From Psammoneis japonica (lineage: Eukaryota): a stretch of 50,711 nt of DNA. The notes beneath the pieces were generated by a model. The model made no database searches. It had not been told where the DNA came from and saw only the letters and a list, made by a program, of their open reading frames with translations. The stretch lies in contig QPGO01000100.1 in NCBI GenBank assembly GCA_008632985.1, positions 62,001 to 112,711 of the forward strand, given 5' to 3'. Position 1 is the stretch's first letter. The number at the start of each line of letters is the position of its first letter. Of this stretch, positions 1-26,995 are shown in pieces. A program made the translations under genes and the position numbers.

Positions 1-2592
1 AAATGTCAGTCACACTCGTGTGTGGTCTCGTGCCAGCATTTTGTGGCTAAGACCGACCCATGCTGCTTTGATGTTTGTTCATTCATTTCACCTCTTTGCT
101 CACACTTCTTTGATCTAATCTCTTCTTCACTTGTGAAAAAATTGCATTGCTTTGCGCTTGATCCAATCTCTTCTTCACTTGTGAATGGATTGCATTGCCT
201 TGCACTTGCGTTTTGGTGGGGTCATCCTCATCACATTGGCACAGGACATCCCATCAAGGAGCTGCCCTCTGCCATTGCATCTGACAATGACAACCTGTGC
301 TGTGCCAGTGGCATGCAACAGCCAAAAAACATGGTGGTGGATGACCCAATGTGATGGCATCTCATCACACGTTGGCTTTGTGGTGCCAGGAACATTGGCT
401 CTGTGTCCAGAGTGTGCAAATCCTGAGAGAAAATGTTGTTGTCTGATGATGACAGAGGAGGAGACAACTTGTGAAAGCAGTTCTGTGCCAACACCCATTT
501 GGAGGGCACAGTCCAAAGCTTTCTTTGTGTGGTGCTGAGCTGGGACTTTTGTTGTTCGACCCAATCACTTGACATGAATGTGTCCTCCACTGAAGAATTG
601 CCAAGCACTCTGCTTGGCCCTGCCCTGGGGTCAAGCAGCATCTTTGCTGTTGGTGAACTCAGCCACAAACAACCCACCGACAATGGCATCAAGAGCAGCC
701 AACACGTTCTTGCTTTGTGAGCACATGATTTAGTTCAGCACAAGCCAGAGCTGTCACATGTGCCTGATGCCATTGCTGGGGTGGTGCTCACAGTGGAAAA
801 TCCACGCGCATCAGCAGCAGCCCTTCCAAGCAGATTTGACAAAGCGTTCAAGGAAGTGCTGGAAATCAAATGCATCACATGCAACATCCTGTGCAATGCC
901 TCGTTTGACAACACTCCAAAGGATGATGACAGAGATGCTCTTTTTCTCAAGGTGAATCTTTTCAGGCAGGACAACATGAAGTTGGTGTGTGGTCTGGAAG
1001 AGGATTCTGTCAGTTGCTTGCATGAGGAGACAAACAAGCCATTGTTCATGTTTGAGAACACCACAGCAGTGGACAATGCTCAGGCTGGAGGAAATTCTTT
1101 CACAGTGCAGGTCAAGGACAGTGCAACTGGGTTTCAAAGCTGGTCTTTTGTGTGAAACTGGGTTTCAAAGCTGGGCCTTTGTCCACGTGGGCATCCTGGA
1201 AGAGGAGGAATTCCCTTGGATCTCAGAGCTGCCAGGCTGCACAGATGAGAAGGACACTCACTGCATCCTGTCCAAAATGCCTGCCTGCAAGTTTTGGATT
1301 GGTCACTTTTCACCACATGTGCATGGTGTGCCAAACAGACCATTTGAAAGTGAAAATGACATGGCTGTCACATTGGGAGGCTTGTGTTGATGGTGAGCTC
1401 TGCTTCGGAGCATTGGCCACTCCCAGTGCTTGGGGACACCATGGCTTGTCAAACTCCTTGACAGTTGGCAGATGGCTTCTGCAGCAGATTCACACATTTC
1501 AGTCCCTTGTTTGCACTGCATCTTTGTGCTGCATCAGAAAGCATCAACCTGGCAACAATTTGTGAATGTGCACTTCGCAAAGAGTGCTTTGAGATGGGCA
1601 AATCCAAAATTCCAATCCCCATGATGGACATTTTTGTCCTTGAAGCTAGAATGTGTTTGAATGCAATGTGATGCTGCAGGTGATTTACATGTGAGACATG
1701 AAGAAGCTTTGGGTCATTTCATGCTTTTTCATTGCGCCAGCAGTCGTGAAAGTTCGAACAAACCTTGTCACAGTTAAGCACCTGCATTTTCTTGCAAAAT
1801 GTGAAATGAAGGTTGTCGAAAACTGCATCTTCACAGGGTGCACCTGCCAGAAAGGAAAATGTTTTTGCCATTTCAGGACCAAGAGGCATTTAACTGCACG
1901 GCAGCTTTCAAATGTTGGAGCGCATCAGACAAGAACTTTTGTGCTGAATTTTGCATTCTGTCACAATGAACTACAAACAAAATTGTCAGTGCCACTGTGA
2001 CATGTTAGGTCTGCCACCCAAAAAGAGTTCAGTGCAGTTTCTCTACGATTAAGAAAAAGCACCTCCAAGACTTTTAGCTTTTTGGCTTTTTGGGGGGGTT
2101 TGCGTTCGGCTCGTCCATCCTTCAGCAAATCAGTCCCGTTGGTGACTGACGACCGACATGTCGTGGCATTTTCGGTTCGTGAAAAACGCGCCAAAACCTC
2201 TGTCGTGTTGTCAGCGAAAGTGCATCTTGCGTTGCTCTTTCGGTTGACCATTACTTCCATCAATGCTGTCGAATAAGGCAATAATTGGCTGAGGAATCAA
2301 TGCATTGTGAACATGAGACTACACTGCTCCAGCTCTTCCTCGTCGCCGTTGCAGCATGCGCTGATGCTTTTGTTTGTCTTTTATGATGCCGAGGCACAAG
2401 ATGAATTTTGCATTCGCAAAAAGGGGTCTAAACCTATTTTTTATTTTCTGAGAAGAGTTGTGCAAGCTTCAACAGTCCTGAGTTTACAGGAAGCTTCAGC
2501 CTTTTTGCAGTCTCACCTCCTGCTACAACTAGCTTCATCCTAATATTGACTAATCCCTTCACACTGGCGCTCTTTGATGATACTGAACGGTT

Positions 2593-4928: not shown

Positions 4929-5253
4929 GTCAAAATGTCAGCAGGCATCGCAGCCTCTGCGCGCTACATTTTTCAGTTCACTTGTCCGTCGATTTTTTTA
5001 ATTAAGGGACCTCGATGAAAAATTGAAATATTTCAATCGTAGCCCGTGGTATCTTTTCTACGGAGGCGGATGCGCACGATGATGGTGCTGTCTCAGCTGA
5101 TCTCGACCCATCCGGCCTTCGTAGAAAAGATACCACGGGCTACGATTGAAATATTTCAATTTTTCATCGAGGTCCCCTAATTAAAAAAATCGACGGACAA
5201 GTGAACTGAAAAATGTAGCGCGCAGAGGCTGCGATGCCTGCTGACATTTTGAC
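4929..5253. repeat. Near-perfect long inverted repeat (foldback A): ~144-bp arms, ~36-bp loop
   Basis: 4929-5072 is the reverse complement of 5109-5253 with about 3 differences. The right arm ends at the single N at 5254. Confidence 0.9.
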
Positions 5254-8200
5254 NAATCCGAAAACTGCCACCTAACCCGGATCTTAAAGTGTTGGAACGA
5301 AGCCCTTGCCGACTGCTGCCCATGCCAAGCTTTTGACAATGCCTGACATGCCGTTCAATCCACAATCATGGGCAGGGTCAGAGTGCATGTCACTGCTTCT
5401 GGCCAATGTCTTTTCAGTCCTGGTCTTCTGTTGTGGCTGCTTCCATTGGTCTGGTGAGCCATCATGTGCCACATGGTGGTTGGAGGTGGGGTGGCCACCA
5501 GTTTTCCCAAATTCTTCTTCGACATGCCCACCCAGAATGCTGCAAGTTTGTAGAAGGTTTTTGCAGTGCCAGGCAGCAATTGCAACCCAGGATGACTCTG
5601 GCACATGAGATGCTGCATGTCAAGTGCAAGAGAGCAGTTTGTGGAGAATCCAACAGATGCCTCCCAGCTCCCCACGACAAGCACTCTGATCACTTTCCCT
5701 GCCTGGAGTCTGATTGACACCATGACATCAGTGTGAGTGACCTTCTGATTGCAACAACATCACATCACAATTGCTGTTGTTTCTTTGATTGAGCTGTCTG
5801 TCACAATGTTGGCTGTTTCTGCACTGATTTCTTCAGCAAGCACAGATTCGTCAGGTTGCTGTTTGTGTGGCAGGCAGGACCATTTGACAGGGTCATCTTG
5901 TGCTCAAGTTGTTCCATCAATGTGCAGCTGGCAGTCATGAAATTGTTGCTTCCACCATTTGGATGGCAGACTTGTTTCCCTCTGTGCTGTGCCATTGAGG
6001 ATGTCTTGAGTGGCATTCCACGCCCTTGAGTCATCCCTGATCTCCTTTGCTTGCTTTTCCTCATCATGTCTCCAGTGTGCCTTGCTCTGCTCCTGTGCTT
6101 GCCAACCCATCCACCAGCTCTGCCCATCACTTGGCATTGCGGAGAGTCTTTGTCATCTGCACAATGGCTTCTACACTCTTCAATCTGTCAAGAACAAACA
6201 AACTGAGGTGCGACCACAGTTGAGAGAAAAGAGTCTGAATGTGTCTCAGCACAATCTCAGAATGAGTGTTTGTCCATTTTTGGACTTTTTCTCACCTCTC
6301 TTTTCTCATGTGTGCTTTTTCGAGTGCAATGAAGCATGTCATGCACATCGGCATTGTTGGCAGGAAAAATTTGGCTGCAAAGTGGCATCAGCTGTTGAAG
6401 TTGTGAGGTTTGAGCATGAACAACAGCAAGAAAATCACAGAAGGAGTTTTGTTCACATTTTTGGACTCATCTCACCTCACTCTCATGGATGTGCTTGTCA
6501 GAGCAAAATGTGGCATGCAATGCATTGGTGTTGTTGGTGGGAAAAGGTTTGGCGGCACAATCTGGCATCGGCTGTTGCTGCCATCATGGTCTGTTTTTCA
6601 TTGCATGTCTTGTTTTGAGCAAGCAACATCTGGGAGATGTGTGTGCAAATTTGCCAATGCAAACAAATGACTCATGTCAAGCAATTGGTCAATTGTCATC
6701 ATGTGGTGCATCAATTGATGCCTCACGCAGCTTGTGAACTTCCCTTGTGCAGCTTGCAAAGTTGCAAGCTGCACAAGGGTGGGGGCAATGAAAAGTCACA
6801 TTGTGCAGCTTGTGAACTTCCCTCATGCAGCCAGCAAAGTTGCAAGCTGCATGAGGGAGACTTGCTTGAGGAGTGACCGTTCAGTTGGGTGTTGTCCCAC
6901 ACTGTTTGACAAGTGTCCCGGGCAGTGGGCAACAATCTCACATCATGCGGACATCACACACTGACTCCAACTGACCCGTTCATGTTCAACTGCAGTGGCT
7001 GTTGTGATGATGATTTGAAATTAAAAAACAAAGTTGTCGGTGGCATGCCAACTTGCTTGCATGTCCAGCATCCACAGTTGATTCCAACCATTGCACCATT
7101 CTTCACACCATTGTCACCATGATTTCCTTTTTTGATTCGGGCTCCAATGTTGACTCCATTGGCTCAGATGAATTTGGGTGTCATCCCACCAACAACAAAG
7201 AGGACATCTCTGACATGCTCCCACTTGCCCCACAGCAACACAATCCTGACAAATTGGATGATGAAGATGACAAAGACATGATGATGACGAAACCTTGATG
7301 GCCACCACCGCCAATGCACACAGCGCATCCCCATTGCTGCTGCTGTGCATCAGCATGAAACCAACAAAGAAAACCATCGTGACAATGCGGGGGAGGGCTG
7401 GCACCAAGCTGGTGATGATCTGTTTGACAGTGTGCTGCATGATCCAAACAACCTGTGCAGCATGCTTGGGACCATTGACACAGTGTTTGCTGGGTTGGAG
7501 TTGGAGTGGAAAAGTCCTGTTGTCATGCCCATCTGCATCACGTGTCACCAAGGGAATCCCGCCATCCCATTTTTTGGAAGACAACATCTCCAAGCATTTG
7601 GGCAGTGGCTCAAAGGAAAACATGTGCAAATGTGATGCTCTTGTTTGTTTTGATGACTCCAAAGGCCCCCCACCACCACCACCACACACCAAGGGCTGCA
7701 GCAACGCCAGTGCAAAGCACAGCTCTCTGTGTGCTGACCCACAATTGCTTGCCTGCACTTCTTGATTTGAAATGAAAGCCAACGGGTCTGGCCGAATTCT
7801 CTGCCAACCCCATCTCAAAGGCACTCGTGAAAAAGACACATGGCAGACTCTCCACCCAAGCAACTCCGGCAATGTGCACTGCAAGTCATCTCTCTGTGAT
7901 GATCGTTGTTGGAACAATTGCAAGCAAGGTCACAAAAGACAGCCTCATTGCACCCAAACCACAAAATCCATTGGTTCTGAAGGCACCTGTGGATGAAACA
8001 TGCACATCAAGTGCAACCAGTTTGGGTGTTGTTTCATTTGTGGCAATGGTTGCTGTTGTCATGAGAACCACGTGCGTCATCTTCCCAAGGAAACAACTGC
8101 AAAGGATGCAGCACCTTGGTTCATCAGAGATTGACTCCATGAAAATGCATGAGAAAGGGGTGTCTGGGTGCAGGGCAAGTTTGCAACTGCACTCCTGCAA

Positions 8201-8499
8201 ACAAGGATTTCTTTTTGACATGTTTGCAGATCCAGCATGTCATGAGAGCAGCTGACAAAGAAAATCTGTCTCCATTGCTTCCTCCATTGGATGACACTCT
8301 CCAGAATGGTGTTGTGGAGTTGTGATGATTCTTTGAAAGCAGGGAGGTCATTGACTTTTGCATGCTGGCCAGTGGCGACAATGCCACCAGACTCCCAATT
8401 GACAGCAAGACCTTTGATTTCAGTCAGTGCTGCTTTTCAATGAAGCACAAGAGTCAATGGAGAAAGGCATGTGGAAGACTTGGAGCAGTTGTGCTGTGG

Positions 8500-9860
8500 C
8501 ATGCTAGAACAGCATCAACAAGAGCATGATTCCTTCAAGCTGCATGCTCCTGTGACAATCTTTTCATTGGTTCTGCCTGGACCATTGGTGGTGAGAAGCA
8601 ATTGTTCCACATGTCACCCCACATTGCAAAGGTGGACATGACTTCTTGCTCCAACAATGAGAAGAGGGCGCTCCTCACATTTTCAGCAAGGTCACTGGAT
8701 TGATCACACTTTGTTTTTTTCTGTGTGCACTTGCCAGAACAGACTCAACCCATGTTTTGCTGGGTCTTCCAAGTTGTTCTTCCAGTGCTTTTGGACAAGC
8801 CGTCCCTCTGTGATGTGCCCACATGATGTTCACCGACAGTGATTTCCAAGAGATTGAAGAGCTGCGTGATGCCATCTGAAGGCACATGTCTTTGACATTC
8901 CAAGCCAGATGTGGATGGCACATTGTCAAAAAAAGGTTGGACAACCCACTGTCCCGGAGAAAAAAGTGTCTTGGTGGGCCCAACTCATGAACGGTTCAAG
9001 CTGCCAGTTGCCAAAATGAAGGCTTGGTTGTGCTCCTTCATGTGCCCTGGTGGTTGCAAGAACAAGGAGTAAATGATGGTGTCCAAGAAGGCTCTTCTCT
9101 TGATGTTTCTTCACAGCCTGCTTGTTCTTCAAGTCTGCAAGGGTGTTGAATCCATGCCCACTCATTTGGACAAGTGTTTGACAAAAAGAAGCCAGCTGCA
9201 CATGCTGCCAAACAAAAGAAATGGATTCAACACTGTGAAGAAGCAAACAACTTGAGTCTTGAAGGCACCAACTTTGGCATGAAAGGTCATGCTGCGCCAG
9301 TCCTGCATTTGCAAAACCTGGCCACAAGTGCAATGAACATGGCAATGCAGCAGTTGGATGTGAAGGTTGTGGAAATAATTTGTGAATCAAGTGGGGTGGT
9401 GCACACACATTGTCTTTGGTCCAAACTCCCTGCTGCCAATCATGTTGTGACAAGGTGCAAGTGCATGCCATCAAGATGTTGGAAAGCTGTCCATTGCTGC
9501 AAGGACTGGCACAAGCCAAGCAGTCAAGGCATCAACCCCAACAGTGCAATTTGGGGAAGTGGTTTGCAAACTTACAAACAAAGAAGAAAGCAACACACAA
9601 GGAAACCCAGAAGACCAAGCCTGCCAAGAACCAGGAAACAATTCAGAGGAAAGCTGTTCATTCTTCAAGCACATGCCAAAGTTTCAATGGGTGCATGTTG
9701 TTTGCATGGAAAAAACACAAGCCCTTCATTGCTCCTGCACTGATTTTCAATGCACAGGCATGGGTTGCATTTGTCAGTTGTCCACAATGAAGTTCGAGTT
9801 GGGCAACCAATTTAACGGATTCTCTCATCATGACGTTTCAATTGTGTGGTGGCAAAGCAT
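8500..9860 (+). mobile_element. Decayed MULE (Mutator-like) DDE transposase with SWIM zinc finger
   Basis: Motifs in order across stops and frameshifts: LFHMSPHIAKVDMTSCSNNEKRALL (D at 8635), MFTDSDFQEIEELRDAI (D at 8835), RCGWHIV (CxxH at 8910), ANNLSLEGTNFGMK (E at 9261), HCSCTDFQCTGMGC (SWIM-like, 9730). Confidence 0.8.
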
Positions 9861-10172
9861 TTCCACCACATGCAAAGAAGGCCACCCGTGTCACACATTT
9901 GAATTGCAACAAGCAAAGATGCATTGTGGCTTGTAATGTTGCACAACAGCTGCAACCAAGCCTTGGTGTTGGCTGCATTTGACACTGCAAACACTGCTGA
10001 AACTGTCCAACTGGAACTTGTGAAGAAGACCCGCACAATTTTCAAAGAAGGATTTTGTCAAGAAAGCTGCAGTTGGTTCAAAAGGGATGGAGTGCAACAA
10101 AGAGACAGGCCAAGAGCAAGTGACGCGTTCCAGGTCTAGGTGGGACCTCGCACTGCTGAACTGTGACATCGA

Positions 10173-10243
10173 NNNNNNNNNNNNNNNNNNNNNNNNNNNN
10201 NNNNNNNNNNNNNNNNNNNNNNNNNNNNNNNNNNNNNNNNNNN
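10173..10243. other. Assembly gap
   Basis: Run of N. Single Ns also occur at 5254 and 46664. Confidence 1.
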
Positions 10244-13200
10244 TGCAACACAACAAATGCAACTGAAGCTGTCTGACCAGTTCAAAAGGAAAGAGCTGAA
10301 GAGAAAATCGATTCCGGAAAACTTTGACAAGCATTGCAGAGTCTGTTTTTGAGACAAGCCAAAGCAAGCTGTCAAATCAACCATGCCGTTGCTTGTTCAA
10401 CACTGCCACTGCCAGATTTTTCCAAATGTCCAATGTTGAGACGAAAGATGACTGTGATGTGGACCAAGACCTGGCGTTTGGTTTCCTGGATGACGTGCAA
10501 CATTCTGGTTGTGAAGCTTGGTCTCAAAACATTGGCAGCAACCAAAGTGCTTGCAATGTTTTGGTGCCACAGACAAACACCCTGTGTGGTCTGTTTGAGT
10601 CTCAAGATGTGTCCTGTGTGGACATGCCAGGCATCAAACCCTTGGCTGCTGCCACAGACAAAATGATTGCAGAGATGTGGGGCAAGCTGCGCTCACTCCG
10701 TGTGTCTCCATTAAATGAGGAAGACAATTCTGCACCATGACAGGGGTGCTGAACTGCAGCAAGCAAGACACAAAATGCCAATGCACCCACGTGTGCCAGA
10801 ATGGTCCAACTGAATGGCCAAATGGTGACCCACATGGCAGCAGTGTGACTGCATTGTCACACATGTTGCACACACTTGGTGGGCATGTCAACACTCAACC
10901 TGGTTTTGACACATGATTCAGCAGTGCAGTCAAACACTGATTGTGTCTCAAGGAACTTTGCATGACAAATCAATGCCATCAGCACCGCTCGGTGCTGGCA
11001 GATTCACTGGATGATCCATGGTGACCATTGCTTGGGAGTCATGATTGCTTTTGGGAACACTCAAACAACTTCAGAGTCTCAACAGCAGGCAAAGTGCTCA
11101 TGCTCCTCCTGTCCACCTTCATGTTCGTGCACCTGGCCATCTCGTCCCACTCCAGCAATTCATCACCATGAGGAATTGCTTGATGACATGCTTGCACGTT
11201 CCGGTGTGTTGTCTTGTCCAGGCAAATGAACTGCAAGAAGGAACATTTTTGCACATGCGCTGAAAACAAGGGAGTGTCCTAAACAAGGCATCACAAAACT
11301 TGTGCTCTTGCAATTTGAACCACCTCTCTCTGCAGTGCTTCACCAATCCATGTTCTCTCCTTGGAATGTGCAGCAGGGTCTTGCCAAAGGTGTGAATCTC
11401 AGGTCATGATTGATGGCACCTGTGACTGCCTTTGCAGCTTTGACAAGAACAGCCTGCATTGCCACCCAGGGAGGGAGGAGGCCTGTTGCAGCATTCTGGC
11501 CAATGTCATGAGTTCAGGTTAAATCCCTGCATTGTTTCACATTGTCATTCAAAACGGAAAGGAATGACTTGCAAGCCTTGATTTGGTCAAACTGAGGAGG
11601 AACCACACCAACAGATCTCTTCCTCAGGCAAAGGCACGCTGCAGCCTGAACTTGAACCTCCAGTTTCCATTCGTCTTCAGGCATGACCTTGGCATTGGGC
11701 TTGACTGCATTGCCAAAATGTTGAAAGTCCTCTCATCCACCATGCTCCTCCTTGTGCAAGCAGAACAAGTGAGTGAAAATCTTGGACAAGCAGAAGCCAA
11801 AGCACTCATTTGCCATGTCATGTTGCAGCCCTTCCTGACTCCCAACCAAAAGCAGCACCCATGTTGCTGCACTCAAAAATCATGGATCTGGAGTGCACCC
11901 GTTTGTGTTGCACATTGGAAGGATGTCAACTCAAGGCAGTTGAGCTGAAACACCAAACACAAGTGAAGGCACACCTTGCAAGCAAGTTGGGAGCATCCGT
12001 CAGGAGCCAGGCACTTGCCAGGTGGCACTCAATCACAAATGATCTGTTTTGATCTTGGGGTGAATTGTGCTGCCAAACCTCATTGCACTGCACTGTGGAT
12101 GATTGGGGCAGGCAAATCTGTGCTGGCCCTTGGGGACAAATGTGGCCATCTCACCTGACAATCCTGCAGCAACCAAAGATTAAATCATGGCATCAACAAA
12201 GACAGGATTGGGCTCTTGTTTGCTTGAGTTGGACTTTGACTGGGGCAACCAAGTGCCTTGAAGCATGCTGGGATGGCTCTGTCCATCCGTGCTGGCATTT
12301 TGTCCCTTGGATTGGCCGCCAGTGAAGCCAATGTTGCAGGCAGTTGCTGGGTTTCTGCCACTTCACTGAATTTTTCTTTGGGATGGAATTGAATTTACAC
12401 CCATGTTCAGTGCCCTCATGGACACCACGCCAGTCAACCTCCTTTGCCAAAGCACCAGCACCTTGGTCTCTGGGCACTGTCATGGACAGCTGTCATGTTG
12501 TTGGCATGAACAAACATTTTGGGATCACAGAAATGCGCCACAGGAGCCACACCCGGAGCTTCAAAAATCTGCTTCAGTCTGCTTGTCAAAAAACCAATCT
12601 GACACTGGGCATGACCACACTCACCTTTGTGCAACAAATGTCCTTGGCATTTTGCCTGCAGTCAGAAGTGAATCTTGGACATGCACTCAAGTGTGCAGCA
12701 AACATGCAGTTTGCCTTGGTCAATGAGAGCGGATTTTTCTTCTTTGGAAAGTTGATGACAATGTCAGCAGTTTCCCTGCTGTGCACATGTTTTCTGATGG
12801 TGACCACACCAGTGTTGATGAGAGCAGTGTTCCCACTGATGTTGCCCCCCTCCCCTGGTGCCAGCGTTGATGGTGCTTCTGCCAATCCCTCTGACAAATG
12901 CTTCTGCTTGCCCACATCTCCCATCCAACCTGCACATGATTTCCAGCATTTGCACCACTCCTTGCCAGCTTCTCTGCACAAGAGTTCCATTTTCAACCAT
13001 GGCTTTTTTGCTGAGATGTTCAATGACAAGGCCGCCACTGTTCTCATCAACATCACTGGCATCAAGATTGGGAAACAGGTGATGAGGACACACAAGGCAG
13101 CAGTGTCAACAGTGGAAACCCTGGGGGGGGGAGCAGGGGAGACAAGCAGCTTGCCAACCCTGTCTCTGCTTGGCTGATGTTGAGAACTCAATGCAGAGGG

Positions 13201-16200
13201 CAGAGTTTCAAGAACAACCAAAGCAGCTGTGCCAGTGAGGAAACACCACCAAATCTTGATCTTGTCAAGCCATGCAGATGGAGAGAAGAGGTGCCCAGAG
13301 GAGGGAGTCACAGCATTTGACTCAGCACACACCTTGCAATGATGGTGCTTGCTGTCAGTGTGACATTGCAAACAATGCCTGCCCCCCAATTCACCTGGAG
13401 CAGGCTGCAAACGAGTGGTGAGGGAAGAGGACATGACATGTGTCACAATGAAAGTGAGCATCAACGAGGTGTTGGTGGGGACACTTGCTGCACGGTGGTC
13501 TTTTGCCATGGTGGCAGCTGATTTTTTTTTGGTGTGATTCAGGTCATGTGTGGGAGGAAATCCGACCATTGAGTTCAAACTGAGCATTGAGTTCAAATTT
13601 TCATCAAACATGTGTCTTGAACAAAACACAAAGCCATTGGATGGTTGGTTGATTGCACAACGCACATGACATTTGCGTGACATGGGATTGTTGCCCACCA
13701 CACAGGATGCCCAGTGCAGAGCTTTCTATGCACAGCATGCAAAAAATGCCAAAAAAATCATGGACATCACAATGATTGATTGCGTTGGTGCATTGATGCC
13801 ACAGCAATCTTTTTGGTCCAAGACTGAACAAGCAGCATGACACCCCAAGATCTGCGGCTCACAACTGAACATCTGATGTGCTGTCATGAGAAATTTCTTA
13901 CACCCAATCAAGCAGATTTGCACCAAAGTTGCAAAGGAAAGGTGCAAGACAGCAGCACTGGCAGCCACAGTGCTGCCAGAGGATGACACCATTGCTGGGT
14001 CAAGTGCTCTGTCATTGTCAGCTGCTTCTGTTGTTTGCAAGAAACAGCTTTGTGCTTTTTGCCAGAGGTGCGCTTTCTCACCAACTTGGCTCTCTCTCAT
14101 CATGGTGTGGGTTCTCAGCTTGCACAAGGCCTTGGCGTTGTTTGCAGGTGTCTGTGTGGGACATGATTGGACCACAGCTCTGAGACTGGGGTCTCATTTC
14201 TGGTCAGGCATCATGATTTCATGAGTGTCTTGGAGATTTCTGGACTGTTGCATTGACCTCTCACCGCTTGGGTGGATTTGAGTGTGCTGGCAATGCTCTG
14301 GCAGCGTCGCTGGGCAAAGGAGGTGTGCTCATGTGACAACACATTTTGCAAGTTGTCAATGTGTGAACTCACTCAATGGTGCTTGCACTTTTGCAGGTCA
14401 CCACAAAATGAAACTCCTGGAAATGATGTGGCCCAGCTCCCTGCCCGAATCACCAAATCAAACCAACAATCGGAACAGATTTGTTGCGTTGTTCATCAAT
14501 GAAAGCTGGTTTGATCATTTGCAGAACAACCTCTGGTGCTTGGTGCATGACAAGATTTCCAGCACATTTGTTTGTCTCAGGATTGTCTGATGTGGGTGGG
14601 GCAACCTCATCAAGCAAATGACCTCAACCCATTTCTAGGTTGCTGGTTCAAGCACGTGATGTGCGGAAAAAGGGAGAGGGGTGCAAAAGACCCCAAACTC
14701 ATCCAACGACCAGCGAAGCTCTGCCATTGAGCTTGCCTTTTCACTGACACATTGGAGCCAATCAGAGCATCTGATCACATCACTTGGGTGTGCCACATGT
14801 GTTGCATTGCAGTGTTGCTGAGTGCTGGTGTTTGTGCCAGCACTGAGGGCTTTCCTGCTGGCAGGCTGGCATGCTTGCAAACGCTGGACGTTGTGCATCT
14901 CATTGCCTTGGCTGGCACACCAGGGCAAAATGACCATGTCTTCCACACTGGGCTTGCAACTGGAAGGTGTGATCAGCACTTCTGGGGGGGTCACACCATG
15001 GGTTTGTGCTTGTTCCAAGTGTTTTGCTTGGAGCTTTCTAATGTTGGCTCAATCGAGGGCATCAAAGCCATGCCCCCCCCCAAGCAGGGCTTTGGGGCCA
15101 CCCACTCCTGGTTCAAGGATTTGCACCCTCAGGAGTGGGTTTGCACCCCAGGGTCAGGGTTGGGTCAGGGAGCACTCCCTTCCTGAGTTGCAGGCTTGTC
15201 ATGTGGGTGGAAGCTTGCCTGTGGAGTTGGGGTCAACTGCAAAGCAGCCACTGCAGCAAATTGCACTTGTCAGCTTTGCCATTGAGAATGTTGGAGGTTT
15301 TTGTGCAGAACAGTTTGCAGGCTCCACTGTGTCATGACTGAATGCACTGGTGCCTGCTGGATGCTGTGTGTTGAGATGAGCAAGCTCCTTGCAAAAAGAA
15401 AGAGGAGAAATGGCATGCCCAAGGGACAAGGCAAGGCACCGGGGAAGGTTTGGTGCCAGAGCCCCTTCCGTTCATGATGACAATGGGCAAACGCATCTCT
15501 GAATTGGCCACCAGTGTCAGATCTGCATGATTTTTGTTGGCAATGATGTGCAGAGATGTGGGTTTGAGACTGACTCAAAACTTGGCACCACATGAGACTC
15601 CACTGTGCATCGTTGTAGACCAGAAATGGAATTTTTGAGTCAGAATCTGAGCCCAGAAAACTTGAATTGCGCAAAACATCACGCCTTCCTTTTCAAGAAA
15701 CATGGGTGCATGTGAACTCTGTTCAGCACCAGCCCAAGAAGTGCAAGGCTCAGGCGAGGACCCAGAGCAATTGATTTTGAGTGCTTTCTGAAGGCAAAAC
15801 TCCTGAATGATCTGCACACACCACATCTGAGCAGATTGTTTCAAAAGACAAAGGAACATCATACAAACCCATTGGTTGTGCCAATGAGACAGAAGCCAGA
15901 GCCACCCCAAGAAAGCCTCACTCCATTTCCTGTGAAGCACTTGTGAGATGGGGTTCCTGTTGGCAGGAGCACAAAGTCCAGAACAACATCACTGCAGCTC
16001 ATTGATTGAGTTGTCACACTCACAATTCTGCCTTGGATTCATGGCTGCAAACCCTGTGTGTTTTTCTGCACAAGCTCTGGCGCTGATGCTGCCTTTTTCA
16101 GACGGTGCAATGATGGTTCTCACCTGCCTGTTCAGACCTGTTCTTTTGTCAACATGTCTAATTTTGTGATCATTGGCAATGTCATGCAGTGGAAAATGAT

Positions 16201-19200
16201 TGGCATCAAAAACTCTTGGTTTGTTTGCTTGGCATTCTTCTCATTTTTTTTTGTTCTTGCACGCAAAGTTTTCACACAGGTTTCAGCACAAATTCTGCAA
16301 GTTCTGCAAATCATCTCAGATGGATGACTTGCCAAACTGCTGATTGCTTTTTCTCCACACCTCTCAAGTGTCAACGGCGCCACTTCTTCCTGCTGTCCAT
16401 TTGAGTTTCCTGCATCATGTGGTGAACGTTCTCCCATTGTTGCTGTTTTCAGAAGTTTGAAGGTGAGAACAACTCAGTGCATGTTGGCCATTCTTCCATG
16501 TGCCAACAAGTCTGTGTGAGCTTCAGCGCATTTTCTGTGTGTTTCAAAGGTCATTTTGGACAATCGACTTGCCAAATTGCCAACTTCTCTCGGTCCATGC
16601 CTCTCCAGCATCAATGACTCCCCTCTTCCCATTGTCTGCTCAAGTTCTCCAGTCCATCCTGTGAACAATCCTTTGTTGTTGTTGCTCCCAGAAGTGTGAA
16701 TTTGAGCCCAGTTTAGTGCCAGTTGGTGGTCAATTTGTGCCCCTTCCTTCTCATGTTGAAACTGTTCCAGACGGCCTGTTTTGCCTTTGCTGCCTGTCCT
16801 GATCCCAGGAAGATGGTCTGATTGAAACATTGAGTGCTTTTCTTTTAAAGTTTTGTCATGCTGGGTGTGTTTTTGATGTTGTCAGCTGTTTCTAGTGGGC
16901 ACCACAGCCTTGTGTGGCATCAATCTTGACTGATTGTCATGAGCCCCTGCCACATCACATGATGTGCTGGGGGTGTGGTTTGGCTTGTCACCAGAGTTGC
17001 AGGATGGAAGCACAGCGTCACACTCAAATGGTCTGAATTGCACAGCCAAGATTAAAAAGCTGCTTTTGAACCATGCAAAGAGGCAGACAATGTTTTTTTG
17101 TGCTGAAGCTTTTGATCCCAAGATTTTTCTGCACATGGCTTGGGATCAGCTCCAGAGAAACACACCAGGCCTTTCTTGCTCAAGAAAGGTTCAAATTTGG
17201 TCAAGGCTGCTTGGTTGGCTGTCTGTCATTGGATGTGCATCAGATGTTTCTGAGTGCTGTCCCTTGATGTCCAAGACTGCTCTGCGTCCTGCATTGTTGA
17301 CTCTGCAAATTGGCTGAAGGATGGGATGTTTTGGTGTTTGGACATTTGCTTTGACAATTGGAAGGACAGAAAACCAACAAATGTTGGAAGTCTGCACCAC
17401 ATCCACATTCATCACAATTGAAACAATTCAAAATGCAACCCTGTGATGTGGACACTCAATGAATGGCATTGTCATGCTGGTGGTGAAGTTGAAACAAAAA
17501 AGGCAAGGGCTCAAGTGTTTTTTGCCATTTCAACTTAAACTTGGAACAAGCAGCTCAGGGAACACATTTGTGGTGCACTGGGACTGCCGCAGCTCAGGGA
17601 ACACATTTGTGGCACACTGGGACTGCTGCACAAATCCCGCAGCGCTCGATGCTTGGGCACCCAGTGGGCTTCTCATCATGGGGTTGACATTGCTGCAGGT
17701 TGAAACATTGGTCACTGGAAGTGCCTTGCAGAGTTGCTGAAGTGTGTTGCCAAGGGAAACAAATTGCATCATCTTGCAAGCAAAGACAACCAAGACCCCT
17801 TTTTTGTGTTTTGGCTGTTCTTTTCCCAAAATGGTCATGACGGCCTTGGCCACCACTGCCAAACAAGCCAATGCAATGCGGTCAAGGGCACCAAAATGGC
17901 AACGTGTTTTTGTGTTTTTTTGTTTTGAACAATGCCAGCACACCATTTGCTTTGCAGTTCTCAGCTTTGTTTTGATGCGGACAATCTGAGTCTCACAATG
18001 TGAAGCACAAAGCCATTTTAGATGTGTGCCACTGGTTGCCTTTCTGAGTGGTTGGCGCCTTGATTTGCCAAGTCTCCTGTGCAATGACTGTTGTTGCACA
18101 CTCATCAGACACAAGCTTTTCCCAATCCAGTTTTTAAATTTGAGCTTCATCTTTAAGCTCACCACATTGTGATGACATTTTCACCTGCTTGAGATTGACA
18201 TTGCCTGGTGGTGATCCTAGTTTCTTGATCATCCAATGAGCCTTGTGATGCTGAGCAAGCTTGGGGTCCCCACCAACATTGTGCTTCTTCAACTCAGCAG
18301 ATGACCACCATCAGGTTGGAGAGTGCACTGTTTTTTGTTTCATCTGCCACCTCTTCTTGACATGTGTGGACTGCTGGCATCATGTTTCCTTTTCTGTTTT
18401 AAAAATGGCTCAGGAACAAAATTCTTCTTTTTGCCACCTCTTGGTGAAGTCAACATTGATGAAGGCAACCGGTGGCCAAGCAGCACACCACTGAATCCTG
18501 TGCTTGTTCTTGCCAGGGCAGAGCTGGCAGGCAAGATGGATCCTGGTCTGCCTGCACCTGACAAAACCCACAACAAGTCATTTCATCTTTCATGGCTTCT
18601 GTTGAAACAGAAACTAATTTGCCTGTGAAAGGATCTGCAAAGAAGAGCACTGTGTTGAAAAGAGCAGGCTTGCTCTGACACAATCGGCTGTGCAGACCAG
18701 CTGGCAACTCCAGGCCTGTCAACCGCACCATGTTTGTTGACACCATTCCTTGTCCCACTTTCCACTCTCTTGTTGCTGAAATTGCACCAAACAGCATGTC
18801 AGCAGGAGCTTGTGAGGGTGGATGGGGGCCAGCCAAAGCCATGTTGTCATTGTGCCCTGCAGTGTTGGCAGCTTTGGCTGTGTTGTCATCCAACTCTTTG
18901 GTTTGGCTCACACATCTGACATTTCAAAAGTCGGTGACACGACGAATGAAAGCATGAAAGCGCGCCTTTTGTCGTCATTGCTCTTTTGTGAAATCTGCCT
19001 CTCAGAGCTTGGACGGATTGATCTGGAGTTTGAGTCTTGTTGATCACCACAAAAAGCCTCTGCAGGCACCTGCACTGGAGACTTCATTGGCTGATTGAGG
19101 GCCTTGACCAACAATGATCGACCCACAGAAAGCTCCCTCCAAGTCAACAGAGAGCAGTGCACAGGGGGGGGGGGGAGCAATCTCTGCCAGCCAGAGAGCA

Positions 19201-19534
19201 GAGAGTGCCACAGACAGGTGGAACTCTGCCATCACCAGCAGGTCATCCATGCAAATGAACTGCCACATCACATTGCTTGGGGCTTGCGTGATGTCCACGT
19301 GGTGGTGCTCCACCCCCCCCAACGCCGCCACCATTTTTCCAATGCTCCCCAATTGTTTTGCCATTGACAGCAAAGCGTCAAGAAACACTGCACAGGGCAC
19401 AGGGGCGCATGGATTGCATGAGGGAAAATTGATTGGAAGTGGCATCATTTGAAGGCTTCTGAACGCAACATTAGAAACGAGTTCGTCGCAGCCGGAGCTG
19501 TTGGCTGCCACTAGCTAGCTATGGGGACACACAT

Positions 19535-20137
19535 GATAAATTTGACCAGTGGTCAAAATCTCGTGTAGAATGCTACACAGAGATCCTTGTACTACAAATG
19601 TTTAAGTTTAACGTCTTTCGACATAATTTAACGCATATGTATAACTTTTTATTCATGCCTTAGAAATGCATAAATGTGGCATGCGCTTTTCTTTATTTAA
19701 TTCAAATTATTCGTTAAAGACGTTAAACACGTGCAATTTTGTACTAAAAAACAATACAAAAGTTTACGTAAGTTAAACTTGTACCAGCCTAGAATTATGG
19801 TACAAAATGCACACACATTTCACATACATGATAAATTTGACCAGTGGTCAAAAATGTGTGTACATTTTGTACCATAATTCTTTGCTGGTAGAAGTTTCAC
19901 TTACGTAAACTTTTGTATCGATTTTTAGTACAAATTTGCAGGTCTTTAACGTCTTTAACGGATTATTTGAATTAAATAACGAAAAGCGCATGCCTTATTC
20001 ATACATCTACAAGGTATGCATAAAAGGTTATACAAAAACGTTAAATTATTTGAAAAGACGTTAAACTTAAACGTTTGTAGTACCAGGATATCTGTGTAGC
20101 ATTCTACACGAGATTTTGACCACTGGTCAAATTTATC
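19535..20137. repeat. AT-rich imperfect foldback (B) with ~285-bp arms and three copies of GATAAATTTGACCAGTGGTCAAAA; MITE-like
   Basis: 19535-19820 pairs with 19852-20137 at roughly 85% identity with essentially no indels. The dyad TTTGACCA-S-TGGTCAAA occurs at 19541, 19836 and 20115. Confidence 0.9.
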
Positions 20138-20952: not shown

Positions 20953-22910
20953 GATCCTGCTTTTTCTGAATCAGCCGACCGGGTTCTTGTGTCCATGATG
21001 TTGGCTCCCTGCTTTTGTGGGTTGCAGTTACTCTTCCCAGACCGCAAAAAGGAGAGCGATTTCTCTTCTAATTCTTTCTTTAGCAATCAAATTCTTGATT
21101 TGTACAGTTTTTTATCATAAACGAGAAACGTTGATGAACTTCCTTTAGTATAATGTTCGTTGGATACGCTATAACCTAGAACTTAATTTAATTGGAAAGA
21201 TGAGCTACTAGCCAGGTTTCATGTTCTTGTTGACTGATCTTGGACTCTCTGTGCTTAGTCGACGTTCGAAAGTCATAAAACTAGAAGTCACCAACAACAA
21301 CAATCTGCGCTGCATCCCCTGCCATGACATGAACCATCAGGCTCAACGGCCATCCAGGTCACAACGGTCGATCGCGGTTGTCGGTCACGCCCGCGGCGCG
21401 CCTGCCACAAAATAAAAAATAAAAAGAGGTAAGCCACCACCACCTCCTGTCCTTCGTTCGCCGAAAGGCCCTACACATATATACACATACATTATCCCGG
21501 GAATACAACCCATGTTGTATTCCGTAGTATTTCTCCGTTGTATTCTACACATTGTACTGACCGTTACCCCACTTCAGCGACCGTATCTTCCGTGTTCTTG
21601 TGGAGGAAGCACGGGAATTTTTCCCGTGTCGAAACAACTGGGTTGTTGCATGGTACGTCGCGTTTTTGATAGATTTATGCAACAACACAACCGAGACCAT
21701 GCCGTCTAAAAAGTGTTACAAGCCAACCTTGATAGCACTCACGTTATTTCTTGGCGGGGTGACTTGTCAATGTGAACAAGACTTCACCAACCAGAGGCCA
21801 TTCAAACAACCCCCAACGATGTCGTGGTGGATGGGTCTAAAGGCGTATGGAACGCCCGAACCAGGCGACAACAGCTTGCCCATGCAAGCAAGGTCAAATT
21901 GGTTGGAACACTGGAGGAAGCCGATTTCCAGCTACATGTCAAACCGGTTGGTGCCGTGGAATGTTCTGTCAAATCAAGGCAACCCGACACGATCAACTGA
22001 CGTAAAAAACCCCGTGCCATGTTTAACATTCATATTTAATATTCTTGTTACATGTAGTGCGTGTCTAGGGCTTCATTCTTCCTTGTTCAATCCACAACAT
22101 CGCTGGAGCGCCCCTTCCAATTGAAGCATCATTTCTGTGCGCACGGCATCCAATAAATCCATCTGCACAGAATGGAATTTTGCACAACAAAACCAAGCCT
22201 CTTGGATTCCTTGTACAATTTCCATTGACAATGAAACAAGAATCGCGAAAATCGGCCCAAGGGATGTTGAGATGTCACCGCCACCAACTCTTTGCCATAA
22301 ATTCCAGTGGCAGCTCAATTTTGATCATTCAACGATGAGTTCCGAAGAGAAAGTCAGCACCACAAAAACCCAAGCCCCGTGGACACCTTACAGCACATGC
22401 GTCAAAATGATGACAAGAAGTGAGAAACAACGCCAAAGGTGCCACAGTGTGTCACAAAAATCCGTCATGTTGATGCTGCATTCTCACAATTTCTGCACTG
22501 CACCTTCAGCGACAAATCCGCCTCGACGGATTGAACTCAACGCCAGCACCACCAGCCCATCATGTCACTTGCACAAAAGCTCCGAGTGCTGCGAAAAGAA
22601 ATGGGAAAATGCGGCAAAAATGGACATGGACATCAGCGACGCAAGGGAGGCCATTGTCGCGATCGTTTTCTTTTTTGGTTGTCTTCGCAGCTGCGCATCT
22701 TGGATGGTGCTGCAGGTTGATGTAGCGGAAGTCGGTGTCTGTGCTTTCCTGGTGACCCTGTAGAAGAAGCACCAGACCCTGCGCAGTTGCACCCAGGGTT
22801 GTGTGTTCTTTCCGTCTGCCTCCACAGTGCACGGGTGCTCCACCGGGCAGCCAGCCGTGCCATGCCAAACACCAGCACTTTATGCCCCACAACAACAACA
22901 TGCAAGATGA

Positions 22911-23336
22911 GAGGGATTTGCCCAAGGATGCCCTCTCAGCCCTGTCTTCGCCAGCCTGGTCCTCTCTCTGGTTCTTTGTCTGATCAACCAAGAACTTCAA
23001 GAACGAATCCCTGGCCGTTCCTCTGTCTCAGTTGGCTCCCACATTGATGATGCTCGCGCTTTCCTTCCCCATTCCGCACTCCCATGCTTCCTTGAACGCT
23101 TCTCTGCCCTCGGCGCTCCCTGCGGGATCTCCCTCAACCTCCGTAAAACCAAAATCCTCACCTCCATCACAGGTGTTAGCCCCATCCCTGCTCTTCCCCC
23201 TTCTCGTGCCGATCCTCTCCGTGCTGCACTTTCCTTCTTAAACCCTGCCAATGACCCCTCCTGCAGCCCCGAACTCACCTCTGGTGTTCGCTTCCTTGGA
23301 CAGCCCCTTGGCTCCCACGACTTTGCCACCTCCTTC
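22911..23336 (+). mobile_element. CRE-clade non-LTR retrotransposon, RT fragment (5'-truncated, part 1)
   Basis: EGFAQGCPLSP, SHIDD (YxDD with TAC>CAC at 23040), GISLNLRKTKIL, GVRFLGQPLGS, all in one frame. Confidence 0.85.
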
Positions 23337-24522
23337 TACGGACGGAACAAACAGGTGTCAGACACCAGTTTCCTGGCATTTTTCTGCTAAAATGGTCACA
23401 TGGAAATTTCGCGCAATTTCAAAAAAAAGATGAGGTTGAATCGAAAAATGCAACAGACACTCACAAAAGTGCGACGCAACACGAGAAGCGACAATGGCGT
23501 CCACAAGGGGATGAAAACAACATCCACACTAATTTTGGGCATGCGCACATGACAACGTGAACGCACTTGATTTGAGGTGGTGCGGGTGCAAAAGTGGGCC
23601 AGATTCTACGCACGTAGAGCTTAGCATGTTTTCTGCACAAATCGCCAAAGTCGGCTCGCCAACTTGAACCCTCTCCAGGACGATGGAAACTTGGACATTT
23701 CACATGACAAAGTGTTTTGACTGCTGTGTTGCACTCTCCTCGACTTGTTTGGGGAGAGAAGTTACAAGTTTTCACAGGTTTCTGAGGACACACAACGAAT
23801 CTAATCAGAAAGGTGCCGAAATCGCGACGTTCGAGTTTTAAAGAGCCACACAAAACGAGAAACCCATGGAAACTTGCAACTTCTCTTCACAAACAAGTCG
23901 AGGGGAGTGTAATTGAGTGGTCCAAACACTTTGTCATGTGAAATGTCCAAGTTTCCATCGTCCTGGAGAGGGTTCAAGTTGGCGAGCCGACTTTGGCGAT
24001 TTGTGTAGAAAACATGCCAAGCTCTACGTGCGTAGAATCTGGCCCACTTTTGCACCCGCACCACCTGAATGACACACCATTTGGCTCACTCGTGCTTGTC
24101 TAAGTGCTCCAATCGACCATTCAAGATGACACCATTGTCATCAACATTCCGTACAGTTGCTGCGCGCAATTCACGTAGAAAATTGTAGAAACAGCTGGTG
24201 ACAACAACGCCCTGAATTCAGCTGCAACCCACATCCACGGTCGATGTGGGCACATGTCTGTGCTTGTCACTGACCAAACAACATGTGTGGTGCATTTGTT
24301 GCATGCAAATTGATCAATGGCATCACCGGTGGCACGCCATTGTCAGCATCGAATGCCGCACAAAAAGCACGGGGACGACAGAAATCGACTCTTCTGTCGC
24401 ATTTGTCTGTCTGTCACCCGTTTGTCTCGTAGAATCTACGTGAAAGTTCCCATGCTTTGCGTCTGTCCATGCTTCATCTGACACCTGTTTGTTCCTCTGA
24501 CAACCGTTTGTTCCACGCTCAG
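23337..24522. mobile_element. 1186-bp non-autonomous insertion with subterminal inverted repeats, 5-bp flanking direct repeat and central foldback (C)
   Basis: CCTTC at 23332-23336 and 24523-24527. A perfect 19-bp IR GGAACAAACAGGTGTCAGA lies at 23344-23362 and 24477-24495, with a degenerate extra copy at 24496-24514. Removing the insert restores the LINE frame (GSHDFATSF-LSDTSSALSDKVDMLLTRL). Confidence 0.85.
23575..24066. repeat. Long inverted repeat (foldback C): ~210-bp arms, ~75-bp loop
   Basis: 23575-23784 is the reverse complement of 23859-24066. Many of the mismatches are TA vs TG or CA vs TG. Confidence 0.92.
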
Positions 24523-24527
24523 CCTTC

Positions 24528-26300: not shown

Positions 26301-26899
26301 TCAATGCTCCCTGAAGGGCTTTTTTTTTTAAATTTTTAATCACTCTTCATGCACCAGTGGAAAAAGTGTGCCTGTGCACATCTCACAGTTGTTGGTGCAC
26401 TGGAAAAACCGTCACAACGGCGCCTTGTTGAGGCTGAGCCAATGGCAATCTGCAACAAGTGGCAAGAACATTCGGCCAGAGGCAACAATGTGTTGATGGG
26501 TTCCATTGGAGAATGCCGCACCCACTTGACTGCCAGACTTCAAAATTGGGTGGTTTCTGTGGTCAAGCCTGGGCTGAGCTGAAGTTAAAAGAGAAAGGCA
26601 TGGCACCCCTCACTTTGCCAGGCACGCGCTGTTGCCAGCACCAGCGGGTGCCAATCCAGTGTGCTGGAAGCATGGATCAGCCAGCATCTGCCCACCCCAT
26701 GTCAGTGAAGCAGCAGCACTCTTGAGCTGGGTTTGGGTTTTCTCAATTGAGCCCTTGTCACACCAGGAGTGTGCAAACTTTCTACAGGCAATGTTTCACT
26801 GCTTTCAACAAATCTTTCAACTTTTTCTGAGCACAGCAAATTTGTGCCATGCAAGCACAACAAAGACTGAGTGGGCTCTTGTCCTGTGTCATCATTTGT

Positions 26900-26995
26900 C
26901 AAGGCATGAACACCAGGGGCGATGGCATTGATGCAAATCTTGTCTGCAGCAAATTCAAGAGCCAACCCACAAGTCAAATTGTCCAACTCAGTGGC
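26900..26995 (-). pseudogene. Short-chain dehydrogenase (SDR) C-terminal fragment
   Basis: LDNLTCGLALEFAADKICINAIAPG matches the SDR pattern LTRxLAxEx(n)IRVNAIAPG, with two Arg>Cys (CG>TG) changes. Confidence 0.55.

Follow-up and report, generated by a model that had tools for sequence, protein, structure and literature searches.

The closest described system is the TpA-only hypermutation of the alga Bigelowiella natans, for which ADAT2 has been named as a candidate agent (Mettrop et al., bioRxiv 2026, 10.64898/2026.01.13.699255). According to that preprint, the two silent viral inserts of mutation-accumulation lines had acquired 231 mutations, of which 230 were A>G or T>C, with TpA as their only context. 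A local de novo rate raised ~1000-fold in living lines belongs to the description of this type, and across the genome there are clusters poor in TpA and rich in CpA+TpG, in which RT and DDE domains are over-represented. A sequence-only reading of the locus studied here had stated that no such system was described in algae, a statement which the preprint puts out of date; for diatoms, our literature search turned up nothing on TpA-specific hypermutation. Fungal RIP, known from ascomycetes, responds to duplications during the sexual cycle; it converts CpA to TpA (C>T) and makes the DNA richer in AT. In animals, APOBEC3/AID and ADAR hyperediting are deaminase-based mutational defences with a dinucleotide context, directed at C in DNA and at A in double-stranded RNA, respectively. 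Adenosine deaminases active on DNA include amphioxus BjADAT2 (PMC10354150) and, as cited in the B. natans preprint, Trypanosoma ADAT2. Among diatoms, ~6% of the Phaeodactylum genome is methylated (PMC6604790, citing Huff & Zilberman 2014 and Veluchamy et al.), and the mutagenic contexts named in the available part of a P. tricornutum mutation-accumulation paper are CG, CC and TG.

The analysis of a 50,711-nucleotide stretch of the diatom Psammoneis japonica (the window) indicated that a context-specific mutator has worked to near-saturation, and on both strands independently, in discrete nuclear domains. Dinucleotide counts in the block 5300–19490 gave 34 TA against 942 expected (O/E 0.04) and 152 CG against 816 (0.19), together with an excess of CA (1585 against 845; 1.88) and TG (1677 against 909; 1.84), and the GC content of depleted DNA was unchanged at 0.48. 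TA and CG O/E were 0.05 and 0.20 in 1–1960, 0.09 and 0.40 in 22100–31700, 0.06 and 0.38 in 38040–39760, and 0.10 and 0.62 in 45950–46830. The gene-bearing blocks between the depleted ones had TA O/E of 0.58–0.70 and CG O/E of 0.90–1.08, with one of these intervening blocks, 39761–45949, at TA 0.39. A Viterbi segmentation with two states, contrasting TA with TG/CA, called six depleted domains (4–1967, 5290–19469, 22074–23600, 24192–31713, 38015–42160 and 45943–46840) with TA O/E of 0.04–0.14, separated by blocks at 0.51–0.71, and the borders were abrupt, being located to within a few YpR sites (Table 1). The sequence-only reading had described ~33 TpA in the ~14-kb block, far below expectation, a large excess of TG/CA, the same pattern in four other blocks, and sharp borders with neighbours normal in TpA; the counts, the TA values of adjacent DNA and the segmentation, which recovers the other blocks nearly to the base, agree with it on all these points. 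The depletion it reported for 38040–39760 was likewise found, but not the right edge, since the domain runs to ~42160. An assembly gap (10173–10243), with very high-copy sequence on its flanks, lies inside the main domain.

Table 1 Features of the window and their composition (O/E values; TA and CG as dinucleotides)
Feature	Coordinates	Strand	Details
TpA/CpG-depleted domain	4..1967		TA 0.05, CG 0.20, TG+CA 1.85; 7 TA left; continues past the window's left end
TA-normal palindromic element	4929..5253		37 bp outside the main domain's left border; 93% self reverse-complement
Main saturated TpA/CpG-depleted domain	5290..19469		TA 0.04 (33–34 left), CG 0.18–0.19, TG+CA 1.86
TA-rich palindromic element	19535..20137		66 bp outside the main domain's right border; 63 TA in 603 bp
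Partly mutated retroelement copy	22074..26236	+	TA 0.11–0.28, CG 0.62–0.82 (Viterbi)
Reverse-transcriptase relic	22911..23336	+	RVT_1, E 1.1e-4; YxDD box reads HIDD
Palindromic (foldback, MITE-like) insertion splitting the RT element	23572..24069		Self reverse-complement match 83%
Downstream part of retroelement ORF	24519..25657	+	tblastn to P0048, L001-L003, L006-L010
Saturated TpA/CpG-depleted domain adjoining the retroelement	26238..31713		26238–31536: TA 0.04, CG 0.14, TG+CA 1.83
PsbQ gene in normal block (control and host marker)	34921..35532	+	PF05757
Saturated TpA-depleted domain	38015..39729		TA 0.05, CG 0.36, TG+CA 1.82
DUF1996 gene relic, four frame pieces	40029..41317	+	PF09362, E 3.7e-15; TA 0.15–0.24, CG 0.86
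Short TpA-depleted domain	45943..46840		TA 0.10, CG 0.63, TG+CA 1.62

The sum of TA, CG, TG and CA (YpR) per 10 kb was 2449 in normal and 2401 in depleted DNA, and this unchanged total means that TA and CG were turned into TG/CA by transitions. The other twelve dinucleotides had O/E within ~0.2 of their normal values; AA/TT, the other WA motif, was not depleted (1.28/1.21 against 1.18/1.17). The substitutions are thus TpA transitions giving TpG or CpA as read from a footprint, not as de novo events. Part of the pattern is accounted for by a CpG deficit matched by TpG/CpA gain (CG 0.14–0.24 in saturated domains), and heterozygous CG/TG and CG/CA sites are present in the block.

Analysis of the flanking bases revealed that TA survival was 0.003 for RTAY, 0.027 for RTAR, 0.065 for YTAY and 0.23 for YTAR, the remaining TAs being mostly of the last class, and per strand 0.006 for TAT, 0.038 for TAC, 0.090 for TAG and 0.157 for TAA (TAR versus TAY, Fisher test p = 2.6e-19). 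These values agree with two independent strand hits (0.055 × 0.48 = 0.026), and in the partly depleted regions RTAY was the class lost first (0.025 versus 0.20–0.37). The survival pattern indicates that the target is 5'-TAY-3' on either strand, mutated ~4 times faster than 5'-TAR-3'.

The loss of TA is further advanced than that of CpG and independent of it. TA was lost with CpG largely kept in the DUF1996 region (TA 0.15–0.24, CG 0.86) and in the RT element (TA 0.11–0.28, CG 0.62–0.82), and if both dinucleotides decay exponentially, these values correspond to a TA decay ~4–8 times faster than that of CpG. CpG had been called scarce in the sequence-only reading, which is correct for 5300–19490 but not uniformly, as the same two regions (22160–26236 and the DUF1996 relic) demonstrate.

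The direction of change was examined in the DUF1996 relic by comparison with 45 homologs over 204 conserved columns, 154 of which were identical. The 12 conserved Tyr columns read Tyr in 3, Cys (TGC) in 4, His (CAC) in 2 and another residue in 3, and 7 of 13 single-transition replacements were TA>TG/CA. The PsbQ control, whose closest named matches are from Thalassiosira at ~50% identity, was identical at 74 of 78 conserved columns, kept 3 of 3 Tyr and had no TA-type change. In the RT relic, 51% identical to its closest relative (P0048), SYLDD of the relative reads SHIDD, and only one of four conserved Tyr columns of the element reads His, in a low-identity alignment. Conserved Tyr residues replaced by His or Cys had been noted before, and they are evident at 6 of the 12 DUF1996 columns and in the RT motif, both relics lying outside the 14-kb block, inside which no protein relic was recognisable. 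Together these comparisons show that the polarity of mutation is TA to TG/CA.

The retroelement ORF frame begins at 21561 and its 5' kilobase is TA-normal, so the depletion border falls within the element. Along the ORF pieces, from 5' to 3', Tyr made up 4 of 187, 1 of 212, 2 of 208 and 0 of 399 residues; the last of these, an open frame at 24501–25697, contains 10 His and 14 Cys, and its comparison with a representative library gave two weak matches of no use. All ten metagenome relatives gave tblastn matches to the RT element, and they have TA O/E of 0.56–0.77 and 1.8–3.4% Tyr, which means that intact relatives of the element are TA-normal. The k-mer depth of the family was ~1100–2600 against ~55 for single-copy sequence, which corresponds to about 20–45 copies, and the high-depth family letter was TA at two of four listed sites where the window has TG/CA. 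The arms of the palindromic insertion that splits the element differed at three places in their first 146 bp, two of these being TA/TG.

The targets of the mutator are a retroelement copy, a host-type gene relic and unrecognisable DNA. The recognisable ones amount to this single retroelement copy and single host-family gene relic, and ~25 kb of depleted DNA is without recognisable homology. Six-frame translation of 5290–19469 read through stops gave no Pfam family at E ≤ 0.01, the five ORFs of 120 aa or more that were scanned in 4–1967 gave no Pfam match, 26238–31713 gave none above noise, and in 21000–31800, where 163 ORFs reach 45 aa, a Pfam scan of the 134 that remained after the shortest were dropped yielded RVT_1 plus noise only. 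No viral genes were recognisable in the depleted domains, no deaminase domain was found among the window ORFs scanned, searches of the window for tRNA genes and Rfam families were negative, and its tandem repeats are all of an ordinary kind. The 379-aa ORF at 12586–13722 (minus strand) had no usable Protein Atlas match; an ORF of this length was attained in 4 of 300 Markov simulations, which weakly suggests a coding ancestry. Self-BLAST of the window revealed no repeats in common among the depleted blocks, and most of the 14-kb block is now single-copy at the k-mer level. A second mutator acting on silenced or repetitive DNA had been proposed from the letters; what stands of this is a mutator, separate from CpG decay, that converts TpA to TpG/CpA within discrete and probably silenced domains. 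Repetitive DNA as the trigger is not supported: the block is now mostly single-copy, and one target is a host-type gene relic.

The letters themselves were compared with k-mer contigs built from a public sequencing run whose platform is not on record and which is probably from the same sample as the assembly. Contigs of depth ~50–58 covered ~10.4 kb of the 14-kb block with 31 differing letters, and since they reproduce this much of it, a base-calling artefact is very unlikely. Normal TA density over the same ~10.4 kb would give ~435 TA, which 31 differences could not restore. Strand-discordant base reading would leave a mixture at every such site, but each site had one definite TG or CA. A sequencing or polishing artefact from modified bases, to which the unrecorded platform and the probably shared sample lend some room, is therefore almost certainly not the explanation: an even depth of ~55 in contigs of up to 3.7 kb requires accurate reads, and the heterozygous CG/TG sites look ordinary. 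Among the same-locus differences listed between block and run contigs, six of eight were CG<>TG/CA and none was at TA, so that these differences give no sign of current TA mutation, with only 33 TA left as targets. The totals over all 603 differing places (A>G 104, G>A 104, C>T 106, T>C 105, transversions 13–23 each) showed a bias to transitions and no polarity.

Of the processes that could produce such a footprint, we consider likely an A:T>G:C mutator that is targeted to domains and works next to 5mC decay; it is probably a DNA adenine deaminase. A thymine-directed chemistry would lead to the same TA>CA/TG outcome: a TET/JBP-type dioxygenase would oxidise the T of 5'-RTA-3' in silenced chromatin to 5-hydroxymethyl- or 5-formyluracil, and 5-formyluracil would mispair with G (T>C). 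A hit on A in TAY and a hit on T in RTA, being on opposite strands, look identical in sequence. The replacement of T by 5-hydroxymethyluracil in dinoflagellates favours TpA and TpC, and 5-formyluracil leads to A:T>G:C transitions; we know of no modification of this kind in diatoms. We regard this route as unlikely, as the only experimental work with the same signature puts forward adenine deamination, although as a proposal there. The sequence-only reading had offered error-prone repair beside an adenine deaminase, with T:G mismatches from 5mC deamination recruiting non-canonical mismatch repair and polymerase eta, which would misincorporate opposite T at WA. TA is the strongest A>G hotspot of polymerase eta and the saturated domains have also lost CpG; however, TA loss precedes CpG loss and is advanced in the DUF1996 region and the RT element with CpG near intact, AA/TT is kept, and the typical A>T and A>C transversions of this polymerase are not seen at TA, the conserved YpR sum implying their absence. 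Removal of 96% of TA would moreover require implausibly many repair patches, so that this route is very unlikely, and the TA-preferring DNA adenine deaminase would be the better of the two candidates.

Native composition, that is, foreign or satellite DNA which was always without TA and CG and was not mutated in place, would suit a 14-kb block without a recognisable homologue. This we find highly improbable, because single transitions have removed Tyr codons from the two relics whose relatives are TA-normal, and because graded, partly depleted zones exist, such as 22074–26236 and 39732–42160; we know of no genome class with a TA O/E of 0.04. Copies mutated before insertion would arise if double-stranded transposon RNA underwent A-to-I editing and was then reverse transcribed and inserted; this route would draw on the reverse transcriptase encoded by one affected element and on the preference of the editing enzymes for U before the edited A, as given in the B. 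natans preprint (10.64898/2026.01.13.699255). It is an extremely improbable source of this pattern, however, given that the 14 kb without a recognisable retroelement and a host-type gene relic are also depleted, that the gains of TG and CA are equal (1677 versus 1585), that the depletion border lies inside the retroelement ORF with a TA-normal 5' kilobase, and that a palindromic insertion inside the domain has arms differing mainly at TA.

Under the adenine-deaminase reading, the domains would be silenced chromatin that recruits the mutator, adenine in DNA would be enzymatically deaminated to hypoxanthine and read as G at the next replication, and the agent may be an ADAT2/TadA-like or other deaminase-fold enzyme. 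ADAT2/ADAT3 and TadA deaminate A following U/T, as in the TA context here, and the natural site of TadA, U-A-C, is consistent with TAY; natural targeting of these enzymes to chromatin domains of DNA is not known to us. In the older parts of the domains, CpG would also have given way to TpG/CpA, as is usual where silenced DNA carries cytosine methylation, and the outcome would be an irreversible inactivation of mobile or foreign DNA, as an A-directed counterpart of fungal RIP. The likeness to RIP lies in irreversible, dinucleotide-specific transitions that inactivate unwanted DNA within sharp borders, with neighbouring genes unaffected. RIP as the process here was rejected, since TpA is destroyed (0.04) and CpA/TpG created (CpA 1.88) with GC unchanged at 0.48, where RIP would leave excess TpA and a higher AT content. 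5mC decay shares the CpG>TpG/CpA half of the pattern but cannot remove TpA, the loss of which is faster here and occurs without CpG loss. The targets of the deaminase-based defences of animals are C in DNA or A in double-stranded RNA, whereas the changes here are A:T>G:C in chromosomal DNA on both strands.

In its footprint, the signature here matches the TpA-only hypermutation of B. natans: TpA>TpG and TpA>CpA only, in discrete regions with normal neighbours, a long-term record of scarce TpA with abundant CpA+TpG, and RT-bearing sequences among the targets. The two differ in host (a diatom, that is, a stramenopile, here and a rhizarian chlorarachniophyte there) and in degree, with a saturated O/E of 0.04 here against 0.45 for the viral insert in the preprint, which sets its cluster cut-off at 0.43. 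CpG decay accompanies the loss here, and a TAY-over-TAR rule was found; the main text of the preprint mentions no CpG and contains no analysis of flanking bases. The rate, measured there, is inferred from the footprint here. Diatoms and B. natans are both photosynthetic protists of the SAR supergroup. Tentatively, and with considerable doubt, this could be extended to diatoms carrying a chromatin-guided 5'-TAY-3' DNA adenine deaminase that, with cytosine methylation, erases mobile, duplicated or foreign DNA, to the same machinery in Bigelowiella, and to a 'reverse RIP' defence ancestral to much of SAR.

Targeted A:T>G:C hypermutation of chromosomal DNA previously rested on one 2026 preprint on one unrelated alga, and its saturated footprint in a diatom extends the process to a second major lineage, which is ecologically weighty and includes species with genetic tools. 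New here are the 3'-neighbour rule (TAY > TAR), which any candidate enzyme will have to reproduce, and a TA loss that is independent of CpG decay and faster. Should the agent be a natural DNA adenine deaminase, it would be relevant to base editing, as a natural DNA adenine editor awaiting isolation. For annotation, the domains conceal transposon and gene relics from homology-based searches, because Tyr codons and TAA/TAG stops vanish and long spurious ORFs arise. Borders that cut through an element suggest that the targeting signal is chromatin state and not sequence identity.

Both borders of the main domain are accompanied by palindromic elements situated just outside it (Table 1). The right-hand one, at 19535–20137, has CTAGCTAGC on both flanks, which looks like a target-site duplication. 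Counts of TA/TG mismatches between palindrome arms, in small numbers, were four in the element inside a domain and four in the element outside.

Dinucleotide counts in 5300–19490 revealed 34 TpA against 942 expected from base composition (observed/expected, O/E, 0.04) and 152 CpG against 816 (0.19), with an excess of CpA (1585/845, 1.88) and TpG (1677/909, 1.84). Two-state Viterbi segmentation set the domain limits (Table), and the four further blocks named in the sequence-only reading showed the same pattern, while TpA was normal (0.58–0.70) and CpG ~1 in the gene blocks between them. Counts and segmentation thus confirmed that observation with two corrections: CpG scarcity is not uniform, reaching 0.62–0.82 in the retroelement (TpA 0.11–0.28) and 0.86 in the DUF1996 gene relic, and the depleted block placed at ~38040–39760 extends farther right, to 42160. 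The window is diatom nuclear DNA; it contains the nuclear gene PsbQ, for which the best matches among named proteins come from Thalassiosira (~50% identity), as well as alcohol-dehydrogenase-like, rhomboid, DUF716 and DUF1996 genes.

Table. Depleted domains and relics within them
Feature	Positions	Remarks
Depleted domain	4–1967	two-state Viterbi segmentation
Depleted domain	5290–19469	two-state Viterbi segmentation
Depleted domain	22074–23600	two-state Viterbi segmentation
Depleted domain	24192–31713	two-state Viterbi segmentation
Depleted domain	38015–42160	two-state Viterbi segmentation
Depleted domain	45943–46840	two-state Viterbi segmentation
RVT_1 match of retroelement relic	22911–23336	
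Continuation of retroelement relic	24519–25657	
DUF1996 gene relic	40029–41317	partly depleted zone, TA 0.15–0.24, CG 0.86

The depleted sequence is very probably real DNA. A public sequencing run, of a platform not on record and probably from the source sample of the assembly, contains 80% of the words sampled from 14000–23000. Its k-mer contigs (pieces ≤3.7 kb, even depth ~50–58) cover ~10.4 kb of the 14-kb block and differ from the window at 31 letters in total, far too few to restore the ~435 TpA of normal density. The contigs of this one run reproduce the depleted letters at sites where the sequence-only reading had allowed that reads might carry TA. If a modified base were misread in a strand-dependent way, CA and TG would appear mixed at each site and such contigs would break up.

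The four pyrimidine–purine steps summed to 2449 per 10 kb in normal and 2401 in depleted DNA, the O/E of the other twelve dinucleotides stayed within ~0.2 of normal-DNA values, and GC was 0.48 in both; thus TA and CG were turned into TG and CA by transitions, in losses that are similar in size and offset each other in GC content. Three lines of evidence, from the DUF1996 relic, a PsbQ control and the retroelement copy, point to the direction TA to TG/CA. Aligned with the 45 best of 68 homologs, the DUF1996 relic was identical in 154 of 204 conserved columns; its 12 conserved Tyr columns read Tyr (3), Cys (TGC, 4), His (CAC, 2) or another residue (3), so that the suspected Tyr-to-His/Cys change was found at six. 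Single transitions account for 13 of its 50 replacements, including seven TA>TG/CA and three CG>TG/CA. PsbQ, in a normal block, kept 74 of 78 conserved columns and all three Tyr, with no TA-type change. Immediately 3' of the DUF1996 relic lies a 153-bp (51-codon) tandem repeat (41300–41826, plus strand; 3.3 copies, 92% match), which is in the frame of the last relic piece and codes for an acidic segment rich in Gly, Ser, Glu and Asp.

The retroelement relic, split by a palindromic insertion, likewise reads SHIDD for the SYLDD of its closest relative, the metagenome protein P0048. Along its reading frame, Tyr content declines from 4/187 to 0/399; in ten metagenome relatives TA O/E is 0.56–0.77 and Tyr makes up 1.8–3.4%. 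Among the four differences listed, the high-depth family letter restores TA at two and CG at one. P0048 has 6.4% His, versus 2.5–4.2% in ten more distant relatives, and 2.3% Tyr, and may itself stem from another diatom's copy that had undergone partial TA mutation.

The 73 TpA surviving in ~25 kb of saturated DNA, where TA is nearly gone, do not form a random sample. Compared with normal DNA, the surviving fraction was 0.003 for RTAY, 0.027 for RTAR, 0.065 for YTAY and 0.23 for YTAR, consistent with independent hits on two strands (mixed classes, 0.055 × 0.48 = 0.026); per strand it was 0.006 for TAT, 0.038 for TAC, 0.090 for TAG and 0.157 for TAA (TAR versus TAY, Fisher test p = 2.6e-19). These classes identify the target as A in 5'-TAY-3', equivalently T in 5'-RTA-3', and RTAY is the first to go in partly depleted zones. 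Since TA is low where CG is still 0.62–0.86, prior CpG loss is not needed; if both decays are exponential, that of TA is ~4–8 times faster. Same-locus differences between window and run contigs in the saturated block (6/8 CG<>TG/CA, 0/8 at TA, with 33 TA left as targets) show that ordinary CpG decay continues there.

Our preferred reading is an A:T>G:C mutator that acts on DNA and is targeted to domains. Its most likely chemistry would be enzymatic deamination of adenine, a choice we hold tentatively, at somewhat below even chances. Thymine oxidation would leave the same footprint and stays the main alternative, because sequence cannot separate the two chemistries. The evidence speaks against polymerase-eta repair, a candidate of the sequence-only reading: AA/TT shows no depletion, transversions are not seen, and the loss of TA is independent of that of CpG. 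An origin in edited RNA that was then reverse-transcribed is also disfavoured, since DNA outside retroelements is affected, both strands are equally hit, and one border lies inside an element. This border (~22070) falls within the retroelement reading frame, the first kilobase of which has normal TA; by inference, this favours targeting through a signal of position, of the chromatin type, rather than through the identity of the element. The targets are a copy of a multi-copy retroelement, a host-family gene relic and the 14-kb block, now mostly single-copy at the k-mer level, in which a search found no recognisable protein relic.

The finding is real and striking, yet its kind has been described once before, although the sequence-only reading knew of no description of one in algae. 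A 2026 preprint on Bigelowiella natans (10.64898/2026.01.13.699255) measured the same signature directly: two silent viral inserts carried 231 mutations, of which 230 were A>G or T>C, every one of these at TpA, and the rate was ~6e-7 per site per generation. It also describes an enrichment of RT and DDE domains in TpA-poor, CpA+TpG-rich clusters and names an ADAT2 candidate. CpG, diatoms and flanking bases go unmentioned in its main text. Our literature search found nothing comparable reported for diatoms; the mutagenic contexts given in the part available of a Phaeodactylum mutation-accumulation study are CG, CC and TG (PMC6604790). Fungal RIP is chemically the reverse of this process, and the feature that defines it is not found here. 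New here are the lineage, the saturated state, the TAY rule, the independence from CpG decay and borders cutting through an element.

Three unrelated palindromic (foldback, MITE-like) elements were observed. Those at 4929–5253 and 19535–20137 are TA-normal and lie on either side of the main block, 37 and 66 bp beyond its borders; the second has CTAGCTAGC on both flanks, resembling a target-site duplication. The arms of the third (23572–24069, within the retroelement) show 3 mismatches over 146 bp, of which two are TA/TG. The main block includes a 71-N assembly gap (10173–10243) flanked by a very high-copy repeat (9706–10339; run k-mer depth ~25,000, many loose contig ends at 10122–10172). Open frames are inflated across depleted domains by the loss of TAA/TAG stops; a 379-aa frame (12586–13725, minus strand) in the main block, without a match in Pfam or Atlas, may be a real-gene relic, as this length arose in 4 of 300 second-order Markov simulations. 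A 592-aa frame (2593–4371, minus strand) in a TA-normal block, without a Pfam family, may be a lineage-specific gene. Directly upstream of the minus-strand alcohol-dehydrogenase-like gene is a 32-bp tandem repeat (33909–34117; 6.5 copies, 66% match).
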